The position numbers were made by a program, and so were the translations under genes. This document shows positions 2,821 through 53,000 of a stretch of 64,000 nucleotides of DNA, piece by piece. This DNA is from an uncultured virus (IMG/VR IMGVR_UViG_3300027229_000005) (taxonomy: Duplodnaviria; Heunggongvirae; Uroviricota; Caudoviricetes). The notes under the pieces are model-generated. The model saw nothing but the letters and a program-made list of their open reading frames with translations, had not been told where the DNA came from and searched no databases. The stretch is taken from the IMG/VR virus record IMGVR_UViG_3300027229_000005; one strand, 5' to 3'. The stretch's first letter is position 1. The number at the start of each line of letters is the position of its first letter.

Positions 2821-3285
2821 ATGGCAAACACAGATAATAAATGCTCAGACCTTAACGTAGAAGATTTCTACACAGGCGTTGAAGACACCTTTGGTCTAAT
2901 CTACAACAAGCAAAAAGAATTACAAGCTCGCCTTGGATTTGACTTCACAGGTTGGACCCTTAAGCAGATTGCAGACTTTTGGATGGTCAACAAGCACGCT
3001 CTAAGTGATGAACTAAACGAAATGTTCGATTCACTAGGAGGTGTTAACGATGGAATTGGTTCAGCTGCATGGAAGTACTGGAAGAAGGATAACGCTAAGG
3101 CAGTTGACATGAAAGTTGAAGATCTTAGTGAAGCAGATCGATTGGAACTCTACTATGAGTGGGTTGATGGCTTGCACTTCTTCATGAATTTCGCAATTTC
3201 AATCGGTATGACTTCAAAAGATGTAGTCAACCTTTACATGGCCAAGAACGCAGAGAATCACGATCGTCAAAACCGAGGATACTAA
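2821..3285 (+). CDS. dCTP/dUTP pyrophosphatase (T4 gp56-like, all-alpha)
   Basis: EWVDGLHFFMN...YMAKNAENHDRQNRGY matches the gp56 C-terminus; WKYWKK motif. Confidence 0.85.
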   Translation: MANTDNKCSDLNVEDFYTGVEDTFGLIYNKQKELQARLGFDFTGWTLKQIADFWMVNKHALSDELNEMFDSLGGVNDGIGSAAWKYWKKDNAKAVDMKVEDLSEADRLELYYEWVDGLHFFMNFAISIGMTSKDVVNLYMAKNAENHDRQNRGY

Positions 3286-4688
3286 TGTTATTAGACGTAG
3301 AACAAAGAGACAAAGAAGTCATTATTTCATATTACGACAAGGAAGGCAAGGTTAATTTCAAGCGCTACCCTGTTGAGCAATTTAAGAACTGGTACATCAC
3401 CGATCCAATGGATCGTTATAAACATGAGACCTTGACAAACTGGGACGGTCGTCCTATCAAGTTGGGTCCTGCTCGCCAGTTCAATAAGTTCTCTTTGATC
3501 TATTACTTAGACAATTTACCCGAACGAGACAAAGAAGAAATCTTTGCATACAATCTTCCTCGTACATACTTTGTCGATATTGAAACCGAGATCGTAGATG
3601 GTTTCCCTAAAGCTGAAGAAGCCAAATCACGAATCCTAACATTCTCAATCATTACGCCAGAACGTAAGGCCATTGTTCTTGGATTAGAAGAACTTTCTCT
3701 TGAAAAAGTTAAGAAAATCGAAGCTGACACTAATGAATACTTCAAACAATTCGATCAGGATTGGACCTTTGAATACCGTCAGTTTAAGAATGAACATGAC
3801 ATGGTGGCAACATTCATTTATCGGTTCTTACCTAAGTTTCCGATGATGACGGGCTGGAACTTTATCAACTATGACTGGCAATATATCGTTAACCGATGTA
3901 AGCGTCTCCAGATTGACATCAAAGAAGCCTCAATGACTCAATCACTTGATAAGAATGATTCTAGACCGCTGCACATCGGCATCTTAGATTACATGCAATT
4001 GTATGATAAGTACGATCGCACGGTCAAGGTAAAAGAATCTAATGCTTTGGATTATGTATCTGGTCAAGTACTGAAGACAAATAAGATCAAGTATAATGGA
4101 TCCTTACAGGACCTTTACGAGAATGACTTTACAAAATACGTATTCTATAACGTAGTTGACTCATGTCTAGTCTATTATATAGATCAACAGCTTAAGTCAA
4201 TGGAAGTTCTATTGACCCTGGCTTCAATCACCAAGATGCCTCTCTATAAAGCTGCATCACCAGTTGCTGTAACGGAAGCTCTGATTGCACGTAAGATGTC
4301 AGCCCTTAATAAGAGAATTGGATCAGAACAAAGAGATGAAGGTTCAAAGGATGGCCAATATGCTGGTGCTTATGTTAAAGAACCGGTTGTTGGTTTCTAT
4401 CAAGGTGTATCTGCATTTGACTTTGCTTCACTGTACCCCTCAATCATGCGACAGTTTAACATCTCACCTGACTCATATAAAGAAATCATTCCAAAGTCTG
4501 AGATTCCTGAAAGACGAAAGAATGAAGATGAAATCGTCTGTGTTAACGGAGTTGTGTACGATAAGAAAGATTCAATATTGAAGCAAATTCTTTCAGATCT
4601 TTACACACAGCGTAAAGAATATAAGGCAAAATCTTACGAGTATTTCACTAAAGCTGAAGAAGCTAAAAAGGTACTAAAAGGATTTTAA
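3285..4688 (+). CDS. family B DNA polymerase, N-terminal subunit (exonuclease, motif A, first finger helix; gp43A-like)
   Basis: ExoI DIETE, ExoII GWNFINYDWQY, ExoIII YNVVD, YAGAYVKEP, motif A FDFASLYPSIM; ends after RKEYK without motifs B and C. Confidence 0.9.
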   Translation: MLLDVEQRDKEVIISYYDKEGKVNFKRYPVEQFKNWYITDPMDRYKHETLTNWDGRPIKLGPARQFNKFSLIYYLDNLPERDKEEIFAYNLPRTYFVDIETEIVDGFPKAEEAKSRILTFSIITPERKAIVLGLEELSLEKVKKIEADTNEYFKQFDQDWTFEYRQFKNEHDMVATFIYRFLPKFPMMTGWNFINYDWQYIVNRCKRLQIDIKEASMTQSLDKNDSRPLHIGILDYMQLYDKYDRTVKVKESNALDYVSGQVLKTNKIKYNGSLQDLYENDFTKYVFYNVVDSCLVYYIDQQLKSMEVLLTLASITKMPLYKAASPVAVTEALIARKMSALNKRIGSEQRDEGSKDGQYAGAYVKEPVVGFYQGVSAFDFASLYPSIMRQFNISPDSYKEIIPKSEIPERRKNEDEIVCVNGVVYDKKDSILKQILSDLYTQRKEYKAKSYEYFTKAEEAKKVLKGF

Positions 4689-7776: not shown

Positions 7777-8526
7777 ATGAAAATTCAAATCAATCGCGTA
7801 GATCAGAACCAATTCGTAGAGTTCGTTAATCGCCTGAAGTCAATCGATTCATTCCTGTACTTCAAGTTGCGTAACGGTAACATTCAATCTGCGGTTTATC
7901 TACCACAACGTGATGCAGTTAAAATGCATTCACAGCCAATTTCAGAGTTGTTCACTGTCGATGGTGATCTTCCTGAAGGTAAGGAAATCAAAGTTGCTTT
8001 CTTTGACGCTAACAAAGTTCTTGAAGCAATTAAGATGTTTGGTTCAGATCAAATCTCAGCAGAGATCGAATTGATCGAGAACGAAGAAGACTATGTATCA
8101 TCTACAATGAAGATTTTCAATAATGAACTTGAAATCACACTAGTTTGTTCTGAACCTTCTCTTGGTTTCAAAGATCTTACAGATTCTCAAATTGAAGGCA
8201 TCTTTTCACGTGAAGGGTCGGCATTTGATTTTACGCTTGACACTTTCACACTTGGTAAAATCAAGTCACTGTTTAATCTTGATAAAGATGAAACGTTTGA
8301 AATTAAAGCGAATGGCGAAGGTGTTCGAGTTAAAGGTAAGACTTATAACTATCAAGCAGGTTCAGAGTACAATGGTCAATCAGCTTCTGCAACCCTTTAC
8401 AAAAAGTATTTGAATCTTCTAGACCGTGAAGAGTACGCAGTTTACGTATCAGCAAATAAGGTTGTTATGAAGTCTAATGACTCTAACACATTGTTGACGA
8501 TTGCTACTTGTCAAACGGCTGAATAA
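7777..8526 (+). CDS. probable sliding clamp (gp45-like)
   Basis: 249 aa, acidic, alpha/beta pattern; TAATG-coupled to the polymerase C-subunit; a clamp loader is encoded elsewhere in the window. Confidence 0.55.
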   Translation: MKIQINRVDQNQFVEFVNRLKSIDSFLYFKLRNGNIQSAVYLPQRDAVKMHSQPISELFTVDGDLPEGKEIKVAFFDANKVLEAIKMFGSDQISAEIELIENEEDYVSSTMKIFNNELEITLVCSEPSLGFKDLTDSQIEGIFSREGSAFDFTLDTFTLGKIKSLFNLDKDETFEIKANGEGVRVKGKTYNYQAGSEYNGQSASATLYKKYLNLLDREEYAVYVSANKVVMKSNDSNTLLTIATCQTAE

Positions 8527-9734
8527 TGACTTTAGAAGAACTAAAGAATACTTCCCTAGATCGACTAGGAAAAGACGAGCTACAAAGCTTGGTGGACTAT
8601 TATCAAAAAGAGTCCGCCAAGTTTACGGCTTATGAGCAAGCGGTTAAGGTAACGCTAAACTCAGTTTACGGTGCATTTGGTAATAAGTGGTTTCACTTCT
8701 TTAATCTAGATATTGCCGAATCAATTACCTTACAGGGTCAAAACGCTATCCTGTATTCTGAACAAGTATTAAATAAGTACTTTCATGATTTTTGGCATAA
8801 AGACACTAAGTTACACGAACACATCGGCGTAACAGTTAAAGGACAATGCCACCGCCCATCTGTAATTTACATTGATACTGATTCGTGCTACGTACAGTTC
8901 GATGAGATGTATAAAACATGTGAATGGACAGGAGAACCGATGACCATTGATACATTCATCCTAGCAGTATACAATTTTAGAATTAAAGAGTATATTGTTA
9001 AAGCAATGGAAAAGTATGCAGTAGCAGCCAACACCGATAACTTCTTAGTTTTTGAGCTAGAAACAGTGGCCTACTCTGGCATTTGGATGAGTAAGAAAAA
9101 GTACATTCAGGATATTGCGTGGGATGATAAGATTCCTACGACTGAACGCCATAAGCCACTGAGTAAAGTAAAGACCATTGGATTTGATACCATTCAATCC
9201 TCTACTCCTACGTTTGCTAGGGCTAAATTAACAGAGGCCCTTAAGATTATGTTTAATGAAGAGGCTGGCCCTACAGCAGACACCCTTCAAAAACTTACAT
9301 CATTCTTAAGCGAAGCCAAGAAGCAGTTCAAGATGGCCAAGCTCGATGAAATTGCGTTCAATAAGAGAACAAATAACATTGAAAGATATATTGTTGATGA
9401 TCATATTGAATTTCAGTTTGGTCTAAAGTGTCCGCCCAACGTAAAGGCTGCAGGATATTACAACTTCTTGTTGAACAACAACCAAAAATTCAAATCAAAG
9501 TATCGACTGATTGGTAATGGTGAGAAGTTGAAGATCTATCACGCAATTGATCCAGGTGGAATTTCAGACGTATTTGCATACCTTCCAGGAGATCATCCTT
9601 ATGAATTTGCGCCACAGGTTGATTACGAAACACAGTTTGAAAAATCAATCATTGATCCCTTGAATCGATTGTTAACGTCAGTTGGATTACAGTCCATTAA
9701 TCGTAATCTAATTTACTCAACTTCTTTGTTCTAA
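8526..9734 (+). CDS. family B DNA polymerase, C-terminal subunit (second finger helix, palm, thumb; gp43B-like)
   Basis: Motif B KVTLNSVYGAFGN, ITLQGQ, motif C YIDTDS, KKKY, and a C-terminal SLF clamp-binding-like tail. Confidence 0.9.
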   Translation: MTLEELKNTSLDRLGKDELQSLVDYYQKESAKFTAYEQAVKVTLNSVYGAFGNKWFHFFNLDIAESITLQGQNAILYSEQVLNKYFHDFWHKDTKLHEHIGVTVKGQCHRPSVIYIDTDSCYVQFDEMYKTCEWTGEPMTIDTFILAVYNFRIKEYIVKAMEKYAVAANTDNFLVFELETVAYSGIWMSKKKYIQDIAWDDKIPTTERHKPLSKVKTIGFDTIQSSTPTFARAKLTEALKIMFNEEAGPTADTLQKLTSFLSEAKKQFKMAKLDEIAFNKRTNNIERYIVDDHIEFQFGLKCPPNVKAAGYYNFLLNNNQKFKSKYRLIGNGEKLKIYHAIDPGGISDVFAYLPGDHPYEFAPQVDYETQFEKSIIDPLNRLLTSVGLQSINRNLIYSTSLF

Positions 9735-45228: not shown

Positions 45229-45302
45229 GGACCCATAGCTCAATTGGATAGAGCAACACACTTCTAATGTGTAGGTTACAGGTTCGACTCCTGTTGGGTT
45301 CA
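45229..45302 (+). tRNA. tRNA-Arg(UCU)
   Basis: GGACCCA/TGGGTTC acceptor, ACACA-CTTCTAA-TGTGT anticodon arm, GGTTCGACTCC. Confidence 0.95.
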
Positions 45303-45425
45303 CAAAAAAAGTTTAAACCCGATGAAACTATAACATACCATCAGGTATAAATAACACAACAAAATAGTTCTTTGTTTTTGGTTACACAAAGACGGGAGAC
45401 CCTGGAAACAGACTCCCTTTTTAAT

Positions 45426-45507
45426 GCGGATGTGGCGAAATTGGTAGACGCGCCAGACTTAGGATCTGGTTTCTTACGAAGTGAAGGTTCGATTCCTTTC
45501 ATCCGCA
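45426..45507 (+). tRNA. tRNA-Leu(UAG)
   Basis: GCGGATG/CATCCGC acceptor, CCAGA-CTTAGGA-TCTGG, long variable arm, GGTTCGATTCC. Confidence 0.95.
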
Positions 45508-45532
45508 CAAACCCAGACGTGTACTAAAACAC

Positions 45533-45544
45533 TGTTCTTTGACA
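45533..45544 (+). promoter_or_regulatory. boxA-like antitermination element
   Basis: TGTTCTTTGACA upstream of tRNA-Ser. Confidence 0.5.
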
Positions 45545-45561
45545 TATTAGTTCTAATAAAG

Positions 45562-45646
45562 GGAGGCGTGGCAGAGTGGTCGATCGCGGCAGTCTTGAAA
45601 ACTGTTGACTGTAACAGGTCCGTAGGTTCGAATCCTACCGCCTCCG
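45562..45646 (+). tRNA. tRNA-Ser(UGA)
   Basis: GGAGGCG/CGCCTCC acceptor, GCAGT-CTTGAAA-ACTGT, long variable arm, GGTTCGAATCC. Confidence 0.95.
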
Positions 45647-45707
45647 CGAAGAGATTGCAATTCTATTGAGAATTGATTCTCTTTATTAACCTTTAAACAA
45701 GAGTAAC

Positions 45708-45872
45708 ATGAAAAAATCTCTTTTTCTAGCTGCAATGGCATTCGCCGCTGTAGCTTGTAACAACACTGAAGAGGTTGTAACTGAGGAAACTACTACCGTT
45801 GAGGAAGTTGTTTCTGAGGAAGCTACCACTGAAGTAGTTGCGGAAGAAGCTACCGAAGTAGTAGCTGAGTAA
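45708..45872 (+). CDS. 54-aa acidic lipoprotein (not in the ORF track)
   Basis: MKKSLFLAAMAFAAVA-C lipobox, then NNTEEVVTEETTTVEEVVSEEATTEVVAEEATEVVAE. Confidence 0.85.
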   Translation: MKKSLFLAAMAFAAVACNNTEEVVTEETTTVEEVVSEEATTEVVAEEATEVVAE

Positions 45873-45931
45873 TCCCACTGAGTCTAGCCTAGGGGACGGG
45901 ACTAACACTCAACTCGATACCGTCCCCTAAT

Positions 45932-46007
45932 GCCTCCTTAGCTCAGTTGGTAGAGCCACTGATTTGTAATCAGTAGGTCGTTGGTTCGAGTCCGACAGGA
46001 GGCTCCA
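45932..46007 (+). tRNA. tRNA-Thr(UGU), CCA encoded
   Basis: GCCTCCT/AGGAGGC acceptor, ACTGA-TTTGTAA-TCAGT. Confidence 0.95.
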
Positions 46008-46008
46008 A

Positions 46009-46104
46009 GGTGGTAATTAGACGAAAATGAAATTCATGCTGTGATGTTAACCTAATCAGCACATTCAGAAGTAGAAATGAGTAACCGCAAATTACTCGCC
46101 ACCA
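46009..46104 (+). ncRNA. candidate ~96-nt structured RNA
   Basis: GGTGGT/GCCACC closing stem, GAGTAA-CCGCAAA-TTACTC arm, TGCTG/CAGCA stem; ends CCA. Confidence 0.4.
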
Positions 46105-46110
46105 AGAAAA

Positions 46111-46204
46111 TGGAGAGATAAACGTAAAACCCTAAGAGCACAGTCGACGGACTGCTTAGGTTGGGACCTTGATGCTGCAAGCGCGCTAAAAAGGTGAAGC
46201 TCCA
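46111..46204 (+). ncRNA. candidate ~94-nt three-way-junction RNA
   Basis: TGGAG/CTCCA closing stem, CCTAAG/CTTAGG with CAGTC-GACG-GACTG, ACCTT/AAGGT. Confidence 0.45.
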
Positions 46205-46211
46205 AAAAATT

Positions 46212-46284
46212 GCGAAAGTAGCTCAGTTGGTAGAGCATGACCTTGCCAAGGTCAGGGTCGCCGGTTCGAACCCGGTCTTTCGCT
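46212..46284 (+). tRNA. tRNA-Gly(GCC)
   Basis: GCGAAAG/CTTTCGC acceptor, TGACC-TTGCCAA-GGTCA. Confidence 0.95.
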
Positions 46285-46285
46285 C

Positions 46286-46585
46286 AAAATAGTAATGTGA
46301 CCGAACAAGGGGTTAAGAGTCCTTAAGGTACTGGCTGAACTGCTGAAAAGCAGGAATGTTGGATCACACAGATCTATGAGATAAAACCACTCAAACTACA
46401 GGGTAGAATGCGCAACCTGGTAGTCAATGAGGTCCCGCCAAGATACGCTATCTGATCTTTGCAACGGGTGCTGGTATGCAATCCAGCTGGTCATTACAAC
46501 AGAACTAGCTACTCTGTTGGACCATGGGTGAAAAGGGGTAGATCCAAGGTGTATGGGTAGTCAGGAATCCCATTATTACTATTTT
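46286..46585 (+). ncRNA. candidate ~300-nt multi-stem non-coding RNA
   Basis: 11-bp end-to-end helix AAAATAGTAAT/ATTACTATTTT enclosing about ten internal stems; no convincing ORF. Confidence 0.6.
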
Positions 46586-46589
46586 TCAT

Positions 46590-46666
46590 GGGGGTATAGC
46601 TCAGTTGGCTAGAGCATCTGCCTTGCACGCAGAGGGTCGTGGGTTCGAATCCCTCTACCTCCACCA
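46590..46666 (+). tRNA. tRNA-Ala(UGC), CCA encoded
   Basis: GGGGGTA/TACCTCC acceptor with G3:U70, TCTGC-CTTGCAC-GCAGA. Confidence 0.95.
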
Positions 46667-46718
46667 TGAGTTTCTTTGTTCTCAGGCAAAACAAAGTGGA
46701 GCTAATGTGGCGAAATTA

Positions 46719-46755
46719 GACGGTTGAGCTTCGGTTCAACCGTCCATTTCTTTTT
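46719..46755 (+). terminator. UUCG hairpin, probable terminator of the tRNA operon
   Basis: GACGGTTGAGC-TTCG-GTTCAACCGTC then CATTTCTTTTT. Confidence 0.7.
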
Positions 46756-46758
46756 AAT

Positions 46759-47019
46759 ATGAGTAAGATCAAAGAAATCATTGAAGGTTGGGGAAGATTG
46801 CTCTTCCAAGATTACGATAACCTAGCACCTGCCCTGAAAGAAAGAACAGAGCAGCGTCTTTCAATTTGTCATGATTGCAAGATTCGTAACGGTGTAATTT
46901 GCGATCCAACCAAAACAGGAACTCATGCGGAAACAGGTAAGATTGTTCGAGGATGTGGTTGTCACCTAAGAGCTAAAGCTCTATCTGTAAATTCTTCTTG
47001 TCCACTTGGTAAGTGGTGA
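46759..47019 (+). CDS. small Cys-rich (zinc-binding) protein
   Basis: RLSICHDC..GCGCHLRAK..SCPLGKW. Confidence 0.75.
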   Translation: MSKIKEIIEGWGRLLFQDYDNLAPALKERTEQRLSICHDCKIRNGVICDPTKTGTHAETGKIVRGCGCHLRAKALSVNSSCPLGKW

Positions 47020-47053
47020 AACAATTTTAGATTTGACTGTATAAATACTAAAC

Positions 47054-47127
47054 GGCCCGTTCGTCTAGCGGTTTAGGACATCTCCCTTTCACGGAGAAGA
47101 TCACGAGTTCGAATCTCGTACGGGTCA
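47054..47127 (+). tRNA. tRNA-Glu(UUC)
   Basis: GGCCCGT/ACGGGTC acceptor, TCTCC-CTTTCAC-GGAGA, AGTTCGAATCT. Confidence 0.95.
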
Positions 47128-47148
47128 CGAATCTTAATTCAATTCAAA

Positions 47149-50276: not shown

Positions 50277-53000
50277 ATGCCTTACGTTTCAAAGGATGAC
50301 ATAATGGTTTATATCGGCAGTAACCTTTCAGTGGTTGCTGGCCAACCATCGACCGTCGAGCTAATCTTGTACAAAGACTACATCAACAATCAGTTGAATG
50401 CCGCTGATGCCGATTCAATTACGGTATCTCTGTACAATTCATTAGGACAAAAGATGTATCAGTACTCAAACCCAGTTATTTCGGGTATTACTGATCTTCT
50501 AACAATGGGTAACCCAGCAACAGCAACGCAGGGTTACATCTCTTTCTCGATCACACCAAACCAGAGCGCAAATCTGGCCAATGGTAACCTTTATGCTCAA
50601 GTAACAATCACATACTCTAACTACTATCCATCAGCGAAGACTTACATTATTCCACAGTTGATGATTGGTACAGTTAGCGGATCAAGTATTACAGGTACTG
50701 GTTCAGGTTCAGGTTCTGGTTCAGGATCGGGTTCAGGATCAACTTCACTTTCAGGTTCAAGTAACGCTTCAAGCCCTTACGTTAGATACCAAGTATCTGC
50801 AGTTGATGGCTCAAACCCATCACTGAAATCAGTCACGTTCAATGCCTCTGATCCTTCACTGGTAACTTCAATCAAGTTTTACAACTTAGATCAGAACAAC
50901 GTTAGAAACGTACTGCTTGAAAATTATCTGATAAAGAGAGACCCGGGCGGTTCTAACGTCAACGCTAACATCGTTGTTACAAACGCAGGTTCTCCAAACC
51001 AATACGCTATCTACGAAATTACAGGTTATAATAGAATTAACGCTGAAGCCGGTGGAGGAGACGATAACGATAATGATTACACTGAAGTTCTAGTTACATA
51101 CGAAGATAGCTCATACTCTCCAGTTGCTTCACCATACGTATGGGAAGTAGGACAGTACATTAGTTATGACATTGATATGTTTGGTGGAGCAGGTTCTGGT
51201 TCAGGAACTGCAGGATCAGACGGCACTTCAGGTTCTTCAGGTACAGACGGTACTTCAGGTTCATCAGGTACTGATGGCGTAGCGGGTCCACAGGGTCCTG
51301 CAGGTGTAGATGGTGTAATAGGTTCTGACGGTTCATCTGGTTCTTCAGGTACTGATGGTACTTCAGGCTCATCTGGCTCTTCAGGTACTGATGGTACTTC
51401 AGGCTCATCTGGTTCTTCAGGTTCTGATGGTACTTCAGGCTCATCTGGTTCTGATGGTACTTCAGGTTCTTCAGGTACTGATGGTACTTCAGGCTCATCT
51501 GGTTCTTCAGGTACTGATGGTACTTCAGGTTCTTCAGGCACTGATGGTACTTCAGGTTCTGATGGTACTTCTGGTTCATCTGGTACAGATGGCGTTGGAG
51601 GTATTACACAGGCTGGAACTAACATTGATGTTTCGGGTTCTGGTACAGTTGCAGACCCTTATGTAATTAGTGCTTCTTCATTAGCAAGTGGATCTTCAGG
51701 TTCATCAGGTACTGATGGTACTTCGGGTTCTTCAGGTACAGACGGTACTTCGGGTTCTTCAGGTACAGACGGTACTTCGGGTTCTTCAGGTACAGACGGT
51801 ACTTCGGGTTCTTCAGGTACAGACGGTACTTCGGGTTCTTCAGGTACTTCAGGAGATAATGGTACTTCAGGTTCATCAGGCACGGACGGCACATCAGGTT
51901 CATCTGGCACAGACGGTACATCGGGTTCTTCAGGTACAGACGGCACTTCAGGTTCATCAGGTACTGATGGCACTTCTGGTTCTTCAGGTACTTCAGGTGA
52001 CAATGGTACTTCGGGTTCTTCAGGTACTTCAGGTGACAATGGTACTTCGGGTTCTTCAGGAACTGATGGTACTTCAGGATCATCAGGCACGGACGGTACT
52101 TCAGGTTCTTCAGGAACTGATGGTACTTCAGGTTCATCGGGTACTTCAGGTGACAATGGTACTTCGGGTTCTTCAGGTACTTCAGGTGACAATGGTACTT
52201 CGGGTTCTTCAGGAACTGATGGTACTTCAGGATCATCAGGCACAGACGGTACTTCAGGTTCTTCAGGAACTGATGGTACTTCAGGTTCATCGGGTACTTC
52301 AGGTGACAATGGTACTTCGGGTTCTTCAGGTACTTCAGGTTCATCTGGCACGGACGGCACTTCTGGTTCTTCGGGTACTAATGGTACTTCAGGTTCTTCA
52401 GGTACAGATGGTACGTCAGGTTCTTCAGGTACTAATGGTCTTGGAATTCCTTCAGGTGGTACATCAGGTCAAGCGCTTGTTAAAATTGACTCTAACCCAT
52501 ATAACGTACAGTGGTCTACTATCTCAGGAGGTTCTGGTTCAGGAACTAACAAGTATCTACTAAGACTTGAATATGATTCATCAAACCACCTAGTTAATAA
52601 CACTACAGATAACAAGTTTGTTTCTGCAACTGGATTCTTGACTGCAAACGCATCAGTTGACTCAGTTTCAGTTAATACTTCAACGGCAATTTATACAGCT
52701 ACAGTTTCATTCAATGAATCAAATCCACCACTTGCAATTCAGGTTCTTGCATGGGATCCTGCAACTTACAAGTATGAAGTTCACGCCTACAGAGTTGACG
52801 CTGCACTAGCTAAAATTGATTCTGCAGCTGCAAACTTCTCTACGTCTGGCACAAATCAACTTGTTCCAAACTTCTTAAATGGTGCATTTACAACATCAAT
52901 GACACTTGACGTAAGAAAAGACTTTATTAAATACGGTAATAAATCAGGTTTGGGTTCTTCTGCAAGAAACGCTCACGCATACGTAATATTTGTATTCTAA
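50277..53000 (+). CDS. virion fibre/surface protein with Ser/Thr-rich Gly-X-Y repeats
   Basis: 907 aa; beta-rich N- and C-terminal domains flank two (GTSGSSGTD)n blocks; late motif at 50241. Confidence 0.8.
51202..52440 (+). repeat. 9/27-nt coding repeats (GGT ACT TCA GGT TCT TCA GGT ACN GAY) in two blocks, about 51202-51600 and 51690-52440
   Basis: Visible tandem repeats with synonymous variation; Gly at every third residue. Confidence 0.92.

Follow-up and report, generated by a model that had tools for sequence, protein, structure and literature searches.

By comparison of its homologs, the RNA encoded at positions 46286-46585 of an uncultured phage appears to consist of an outer manA core and, inside it, a second, circularly permuted set of the same core elements. 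This long RNA is probably a trans-acting, self-assembling non-coding RNA that would have been derived from manA by internal duplication. The window refers to the whole analysed stretch of DNA, 64,000 nucleotides in length.

Locus and phage

The window is part of a T4-like myophage, as portal, head protease, major capsid, terminase, sheath, split DNA polymerase and clamp loader were identified among the 30 proteins scanned. The capsid protein was closest to that of a 462-kb uncultured phage (52%), followed by those of Lak megaphages (35-38%). The nearest relative record of the phage, 170.6 kb and about 70% complete, contains one copy of the RNA. The relatives suggest a Bacteroidota host, since the Lak records name Prevotella and 4 of 4 GTDB matches belong to Bacteroidales. 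The family-B DNA polymerase is encoded in two genes (3285-4688 and 8526-9734) with ribonucleotide reductase genes between them, and a 907-aa protein with a long S/G/T/D repeat is encoded at 50277-53000.

Seven tRNAs were determined within 45229-47128 of the window. The features around the long RNA are as follows.

46212..46285, + strand: tRNA-Gly(GCC), abutting the 5′ end of the RNA
46286..46585, + strand: long (double-core) manA-like ncRNA, supported by covariation; 125 bits, E 2e-36 against covariance model R1 built without the window copy
46590..46666, + strand: tRNA-Ala(TGC), beginning 4 nt past the closing stem
46719..46744, + strand: terminator-like hairpin after tRNA-Ala; one found vs 1.6 in shuffles, weak alone

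As stated in the preliminary description, made from the sequence alone, the RNA fills the gap between the two tRNAs, which end at 46285 and start at 46590, respectively. The absence of a real ORF also holds: none of 40 aa or more lies inside 46286-46585, and a 61-aa minus-strand TTG frame overlaps the 3′ end. The RNA had been called GC-richer than other spacers. Its GC content of 44.3% is higher than that of the window (39.1%) and of six of the seven nearby spacers, but lower than that of one spacer with 54%.

The tRNA cluster also contains a 54-aa ORF (45708-45872) with a lipoprotein-like signal, acidic repeats and no PHROG match. Between tRNA-Thr and tRNA-Gly, two closed-stem elements of about 95 nt were observed at 46009-46104 and 46111-46204. 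They are separable in relatives, the second being present in locus L145 and the first in L148 and L139, and display some compensatory changes; no credible Rfam match was obtained and the folding z was -1.21. Both are candidate small phage RNAs.

Homologs and distribution

A search with the 5′ manA motif resulted in at least 120 viral loci, most spanning 155-170 nt to the 3′ motif; among the loci listed, two span about 280 nt, and 54 matches were without the 3′ motif. Patterns with long spacing yielded 7 viral, 30 metagenomic, 4 GTDB and 9 further viral loci, 3 of the last group not being the RNA. Three later scans gave 7 more distinct sequences. The family comprises 42 distinct homologs of about 300 nt in all, with identities down to 43%, including copies in Lak megaphages, a 735-kb phage and Bacteroidales genomes. 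Duplicates and L164, L166, L167, L187 and L191-L193, which had no long-RNA match, were left out.

The sequences fall into three subclasses, namely the window-like A, B with Lak, gut and Bacteroidales copies, and C. With a class-B query, 15 Lak records and two 735-kb records were retrieved, and 5 of them were examined in sequence. Blastn of the window RNA against phage records returned a 47-nt piece in two records only, and a blastn-type search of phage records with a class-C query gave no match. The distribution is patchy. Only the 735-kb record among five huge-phage records had the RNA, and the phage with the closest capsid was without it. A single copy per genome was detected in 9 of 9 genomes searched. 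The 735-kb phage copy (L173, 893-1246, LR756501) has a larger domain with GNRA-type loops in place of palindromic loop 2 and no tRNA nearby.

Secondary structure

Folding energy alone did not exceed chance (z -1.42, a level equalled by 19 of 200 shuffles), and the covariation model, without its tertiary pairs, lies 16.5 kcal/mol above the MFE. The helices were drawn by hand from the alignments and the pairs were then counted. In class A (7 sequences), 92.9% of cells were paired with double changes in 36 of 87 pairs; the corresponding values for class B (17 sequences) were 90.5% and 44 of 76. For all 35 sequences, in an alignment fitted to the model, 95.7% of cells were paired and 52 of 63 pairs were double-changed. 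Each set exceeded 500 of 500 shuffles on pairing and covariation; relatedness is not taken into account by these shuffles, and the sequences tested are also those from which the helices had been drawn. Slid controls were 30-47% paired. The covariation establishes a predicted fold of about 300 nt with at least 14 covarying helices, and the parts are listed below with the support for each.

46286..46297, + strand: closing stem, 5′ strand, pairing with 46574-46585 (end-helix inspection, covariation)
46297..46330, + strand: 5′ part of the outer manA core with GUGACCGAACAA, a 3-bp stem 46300-02/46327-29, P3 46308-13/46319-24 and UAAGGU (Rfam alignment, covariation)
46315..46318, + strand: L3 (AAGA), partner J8* 46456-46459 (covariation scan, permutation, later homologs)
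46331..46362, + strand: hairpin replacing manA P4-P7, with a near-invariant C-UGAAA-A-G cap at 46343-46350, which we take to be a T-loop-like motif (alignment, covariation)
46367..46376, + strand: linker helix, 5′ strand; GATCTA 46371-76 pairs with TAGATC 46539-44 (5 of 6 pairs double-changed)
46386..46388, + strand: 3-bp stem of the inner core, ACC pairing with GGT 46527-29 (GGU/ACU in class B; 100% paired, 8 and 14 double-change cells)
46390..46431, + strand: arm with palindromic loop 1, UGCGCA 46409-46414 (covariation, column scan)
46434..46468, + strand: P8* arm, its 3′ strand with CUGA 46452-55 (complementary to L9), then J8* UCUU 46456-59 (pairing with L3) (covariation)
46470..46487, + strand: P9*, second P9-like hairpin with the loop shortened to 8 nt (motif search, covariation)
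46488..46524, + strand: closing stem of the inner core, 46488-92/46520-24, and capping hairpin with palindromic loop 2, UAGCUA 46506-46511 (covariation)
46524..46538, + strand: second, diverged occurrence of the 5′ core motif, AUGGGUGAAAAGGGG in the window and GUGACUGAAYAA in class B; with its 4 mismatches, the window copy is not significant by itself
46553..46573, + strand: P9/L9 of the outer core, UCAG 46561-64 (Rfam alignment, covariation)

The preliminary description had proposed a possibly new structured phage RNA, and the homologs together with the double changes in 52 of 63 pairs, a level reached in 0 of 500 shuffles, confirm that the RNA is structured and conserved. All the sequence words it listed occur in the RNA. 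The 11-bp helix of the ends is present and supported by homologs, and homolog pairing backs CTGCT/AGCAG, ACTACAGGGT/ACCTGGTAGT, CCCG/CGGG, GCTGG/CCAGC, CAACAGA/TCTGTTG and ATGGG/CCCAT. The AAGG/CCTT helix is real with its register shifted by one base. TGACC/GGTCA, GGATC/GATCT, TGAG(46377)/CTCA and ACC-TGGGT/ATCCA-GGT were unsupported, as was the CTAC/GTAG loop-loop contact: these five together had double changes in 3 of 26 pairs, and 168 of 500 shuffles were as high. Their bases pair elsewhere (ACC 46300/GGT 46327, GATCTA/TAGATC, CTCA/TGAG 46428 and TGGTC/GACCA). The suggestion of tertiary structure was thus right in general, with contacts other than the one proposed.

Relation to manA

Only tRNAs scored at threshold in Rfam. 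In agreement with the preliminary description, no match to tmRNA, RNase P, group I intron, GOLLD or ROOL was obtained. Its suggestion of novelty stands in so far as no Rfam family is reached at threshold, and the relation to manA had been missed: RF01745 matches the RNA over the full model with 25.5 bits (E 8e-5 on 331 bases), the gathering cut-off being 55.2 bits. Both ends were aligned, 137 nt remained unaligned and P5 was deleted. The homologs also scored below the cut-off, the best with 36 bits among 15 loci and 31.7 among 12. The full-model match means that the RNA is a new architecture within a known kind and not an unrelated RNA.

The order of elements in Rfam manA is closing stem, GUGACUGAAYAA, P3, UAAGGU, P4-P7, P8, P9, closing stem; loop numbers for the comparison were mapped from this helix order. 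The 5′ core motif with the P3 arm and UAAGGU, and the P9 hairpin GGUA..CAG.AAUCC with the closing stem, are present in the long RNA. The L3 x P8-strand and L8 x L9 complementarities are present as well, the L9 contact being invariant and not covarying. The P4-P7 multiloop with complementary L5 and L7 is absent and a single hairpin is in its place. The core spans 264-289 nt in the long form vs mostly 155-170 nt in manA, which is defined by less than 200 nt and a single core. A manA RNA is also expected in a potential 5′ UTR; here, tRNA-Ala follows. With model R1, built from 17 class-B sequences only, short manA-like loci scored 17-56 bits vs 115-309 for 35 distinct long RNAs. The 46286-46585 RNA is therefore outside RF01745 by score, length, P4-P7 and position, and works from the same core.

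Short manA-like RNAs with core spans of about 130-170 nt, unlike the cyanophage type and some of them beside tRNAs, were observed at L051, L054, L060, L065, L086, L102 and L167. They are possibly further manA subfamilies.

The second core

The outer frame of the long RNA corresponds to manA with one hairpin for P4-P7 and a long linker helix for P8. Inside the linker, the elements follow in rotated order: P3 3′ strand, UAAGGU, an arm, a P8-like arm, a P9-like hairpin, the closing stem capped by a new hairpin, GUGACUGAAYAA and P3 5′ strand. The linker helix takes the P8 position of the outer core and the P3 position of the inner one.

The second 12-nt motif deviates at no more than one position in all 18 class-B sequences (p 0.005 or less, with 200 shuffles per sequence) and at 2-3 positions in 5 class-C sequences. 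It was not significant in 7 of 7 class-A sequences including the window (shuffle p 0.2-1.0). The inner 3-bp stem pairs in all 35 sequences, with GGU/ACU switched to ACC/GGU in the window, and this stem, the inner closing stem and P9* were 100% paired with double changes. The motif of the window's second core appears to have diverged while its predicted pairing was kept. When rotated inner segments were compared with short manA in an nhmmer profile test, they did no better than random rotations, and only the 12-nt motif was caught. As this test adds nothing, the case for the permutation is built on the order of the motifs and the topology of the helices.

Contacts of L3 and L9 and palindromic loops

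In a scan of the columns left unpaired by the model, 23 column pairs passed, forming three stacked sets and the extension of one stem. One set is the 4-bp helix L3 x J8*: its 15 types give 58 paired cells out of 60, against a mean of 36.7 in permutations, none of which (0 of 100000) was as high, and a separate count gave 97.1% paired. By eye, L3 x J8* also pairs in 7 of 7 later homologs, in three of which the search pattern had fixed J8* but not L3. The (C)UGA just 5′ of J8* is complementary to UCAG of L9, fully in 28 of 35 sequences. Since 3 of the 4 pairs never vary, there is no covariation of this contact within the family. A fifth pair, CUGAU x GUCAG, was dropped because that base pairs with L3 instead. 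No partner for L9* or for the GUU after the T-loop hairpin passed the scan. Short manA has counterparts of L3 x J8* and of the L9 contact, namely L3 x P8-strand and L8 x L9, and these covary in 86 sequences. L3 x J8* is equally compatible with pairing within one molecule and between molecules.

The two loops stay self-complementary in the aligned sequences. In loop 1, the adjacent columns pair with each other in all 34 rows that have letters, as three types. The loop is a Watson-Crick palindrome in 38 of 42 sequences (GGCC 25, GCGC 9, GUAC 4) and a G-U variant in 4; GUAC arose 4 times on the tree. A 4-nt palindrome was present in loop 1 in 28 of 30 rows vs 6, 2 and 1 in the control loops L3, L9* and L9, respectively. 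Loop 2 is found as six palindromes (AGCU, AAUU, GGCC, CAUG, GAUC and CUAG), in 34 of 35 sequences by eye. It is palindromic in 6 of 7 later homologs, with L189 failing and L218 marginal, and absent from the 735-kb phage copy.

As adjacent bases cannot pair in one chain, changes which keep the palindrome point to pairing across chains, with another copy of the RNA. In OLE and GOLLD, cross-chain pairs were marked by such covariation of adjacent bases (10.1101/2024.12.08.627333). That the palindromes act in DNA, as sites of dimeric proteins, or that the element is selfish, non-functional DNA, is hardly credible. The palindromes do double as dyad DNA sites and a patchy spread would suit a selfish element, but RNA is indicated by the G-U-tolerant variants of loop 1 (4/42) and by the G-U pairs found throughout the stems, the palindromes change freely in sequence, and the single copy in 9/9 genomes argues against a selfish element.

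Gene neighbourhood and transcription

A tRNA lies within 1.5 kb in 28 of 35 copies, and the flanking tRNAs differ between phages. The tRNA start is at most 120 nt downstream in 18 of 35 copies, and a tRNA is at most 100 nt upstream in 12 of 35. The layout fits a release of the RNA by tRNA processing. Rather likely, the RNA would be part of the tRNA-cluster transcript, from which the tRNA-end processing of the host would release it.

In all four RNA-library runs examined, out of 24 listed, many of which may share one campaign, contigs from close variants extend over the RNA. The contig depth was 99-747 over 46284-46505 vs 0-4 over 46728-47023, and one contig spans the cluster to 46717. Because contigs give no level, strand or ends, the data are only consistent with transcription. 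The promoter scan was at chance level, and no Bacteroidota-type -7 motif was found upstream.

A role of the RNA as a ribozyme or processing element (RNase P-like, self-cleaving or intron-like) which matures the flanking tRNAs is very improbable. Its size and complexity, the two-core junctions, conserved and potentially catalytic, and the tight 5′-side tRNA fit in 12/35 copies would agree with it. However, 7/35 copies were without a tRNA inside the 1.5 kb examined, no RNase P, group I/II intron, ribozyme or tmRNA was matched (Rfam up to E 10; ARAGORN for tmRNA), and no catalysis of the related manA is reported in the available parts of PMC2864571 and 10.64898/2026.07.01.735769.

Of 30 loci scanned, 7 have RtcB or TROVE genes (rtcB or Ro60) beside the RNA. 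Three of these also contain a divergent WYL regulator, and four gave YrlA-like matches below threshold. The seven loci form one clade and thus represent one event. No match to RtcB, TROVE or DUF2828 was obtained in the nearest record of the window phage or in a complete class-A phage. The operons of L128, L129, L133, L134, L142, L152 and L158 are of an rtcB/Ro60/tRNA/YrlA-like type with a divergent WYL-WCX regulator, on Bacteroidales-type contigs, and their YrlA-like RNAs score under the Rfam cut-off. Y RNAs beside Ro60 are known (PMC4201824). DUF2828 genes occur near the class-C copies L132, L135, L154 and L163, and beside rtcB in LR756501, near 341-343 kb. A relationship of DUF2828 to Ro60 was not supported (phmmer E 0.86 or worse, no paper found).

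Weinberg 2010 (PMC2864571) lists manA as cis-regulatory and a riboswitch candidate, and in L134, L142 and L152 the rtcB start codon is 20 nt past the RNA. A cis-regulatory leader or riboswitch is nevertheless a most unlikely reading here: tRNA-Ala and a terminator-like hairpin follow in the window, 18/35 copies have a tRNA start within 120 nt downstream, the ends of the RNA are locked in a long covarying stem and no downstream gene is common to the copies.

Assembly and function

In the manA pentamer-based decamers and 60-mer determined by cryo-EM (10.64898/2026.07.01.735769), L3-L8′ and L8-L9′ are intermolecular kisses. The continuous linker helix of the long RNA would be a covalent stand-in for the inter-protomer L3-L8′ contact, so that one molecule equals two fused protomers, which we regard as fairly probable. 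The shortened, variable L9* would fit a contact that is no longer needed. Molecules would join at two-fold axes via the two palindromic loops and probably head-to-tail via docking of P8* on L3 and L9. As the two loops can pair only with another copy, an RNA-only complex is probable; formation of some oligomer is likely, and the product would be a closed RNA-only oligomer like manA, GOLLD and ROOL.

Alternatively, the RNA could be monomeric or simply dimeric, with the cores docked in cis (L3 x J8*, L9 x CUGA) and the palindromes making only a dimer, as in OLE; it would then bind protein or tRNA elbows via T-loop-like motifs. Cis pairing would account equally well for the long-range helices, several UGAA-type loops are near-invariant, and one clade adjoins Ro60, YrlA-like RNAs and tRNAs. 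Against this, the homologous contacts are intermolecular in the solved manA forms (10.64898/2026.07.01.735769) and no protein gene accompanies all copies, RtcB or TROVE being found at 7/30 loci. We consider the monomer or simple dimer unlikely.

For the self-assembling RNA, a role as a stable scaffold or decoy in the conflict over tRNA supply and tRNA damage in infected cells would be the likeliest single one, although doubtful. A more far-reaching proposal can be put forward tentatively. The long RNA may be a natural covalent fusion of two manA protomers, in which the permuted copy was cut open in L3 and inserted into the P8 arm of the other, and even-numbered rings joined by palindromic loops may build a new RNA-only cage. 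It may be used by Bacteroidota-linked phages of up to 735 kb and may, on a single occasion, have been taken up by a bacterial rtcB/Ro60 RNA-repair operon, where it would shield or store tRNA. If the fusion reading is true, the turning of the kissing-loop interface into a continuous helix makes the odd-numbered manA pentamers impossible.

The RNA-only cages (GOLLD, ROOL, manA) are a new class of unknown function. The family offers a 300-nt target whose sequence-predicted interfaces can be swapped one by one, and would be a natural example of duplication, permutation and fusion shaping the quaternary structure of an RNA, as they do in proteins. It also represents an ncRNA gene without annotation, with matches in 15 Lak megaphage records and a 735-kb phage. 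The RNA-repair operon in Bacteroidales is the first gene-context lead for a manA-type RNA, and a cultured host may allow genetics.

Comparison with known RNAs

No long or double manA was found in the freely accessible literature searched. None is present in the available parts of PMC9964418, PMC10085705, PMC7779021, 10.1101/2020.02.04.933952, PMC12990946 and PMC10690425, and four motifs are absent from the searched supplements of PMC10690425. In the comparison with manA (Weinberg 2010, PMC2864571; 10.64898/2026.07.01.735769), the 5′ core GUGACYGAAYAA-P3-UAAGGU, the P9 hairpin and the closing stem are common to both RNAs, as are the L3 x P8-strand and L8 x L9 complementarities and the occurrence in T4-like phages. 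In contrast to manA with about 190 nt, the long RNA has about 300 nt and is under the Rfam cut-off. It is without the 5′ hairpin and without the P4-P7 multiloop and L5-L7 kiss, and it has, unlike manA, a second permuted core, two homotypic palindromic loops, and tRNA-cluster and Bacteroidota-linked contexts.

The Y RNAs (YrlA) of Ro60 loci (PMC4201824) share operons with one clade of the long RNA, which is situated there beside YrlA-like RNAs and Ro60. The long RNA itself has no YrlA match, and most carriers checked were without Ro60. OLE is a cellular Gram-positive RNA with protein partners, and the long RNA has no Rfam match to it. The tetranucleotide of the OLE dimer loop switches between GGCC, GAUC and AGCU, as loop 2 of the long RNA likewise switches (10.1101/2024.12.08.627333).

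The long RNA has no Rfam match to GOLLD or ROOL, which are about 580-800 nt in size, and its core is different. Like the long RNA, GOLLD and ROOL are phage ncRNAs near tRNA clusters with unknown function (Kretsch et al., 10.1101/2024.12.08.627333). According to the same source, they form RNA-only cages with symmetric kissing loops. By their adjacent-base covariation, the two loops of the long RNA would be symmetric kissing loops of the kind found in GOLLD, ROOL and OLE.
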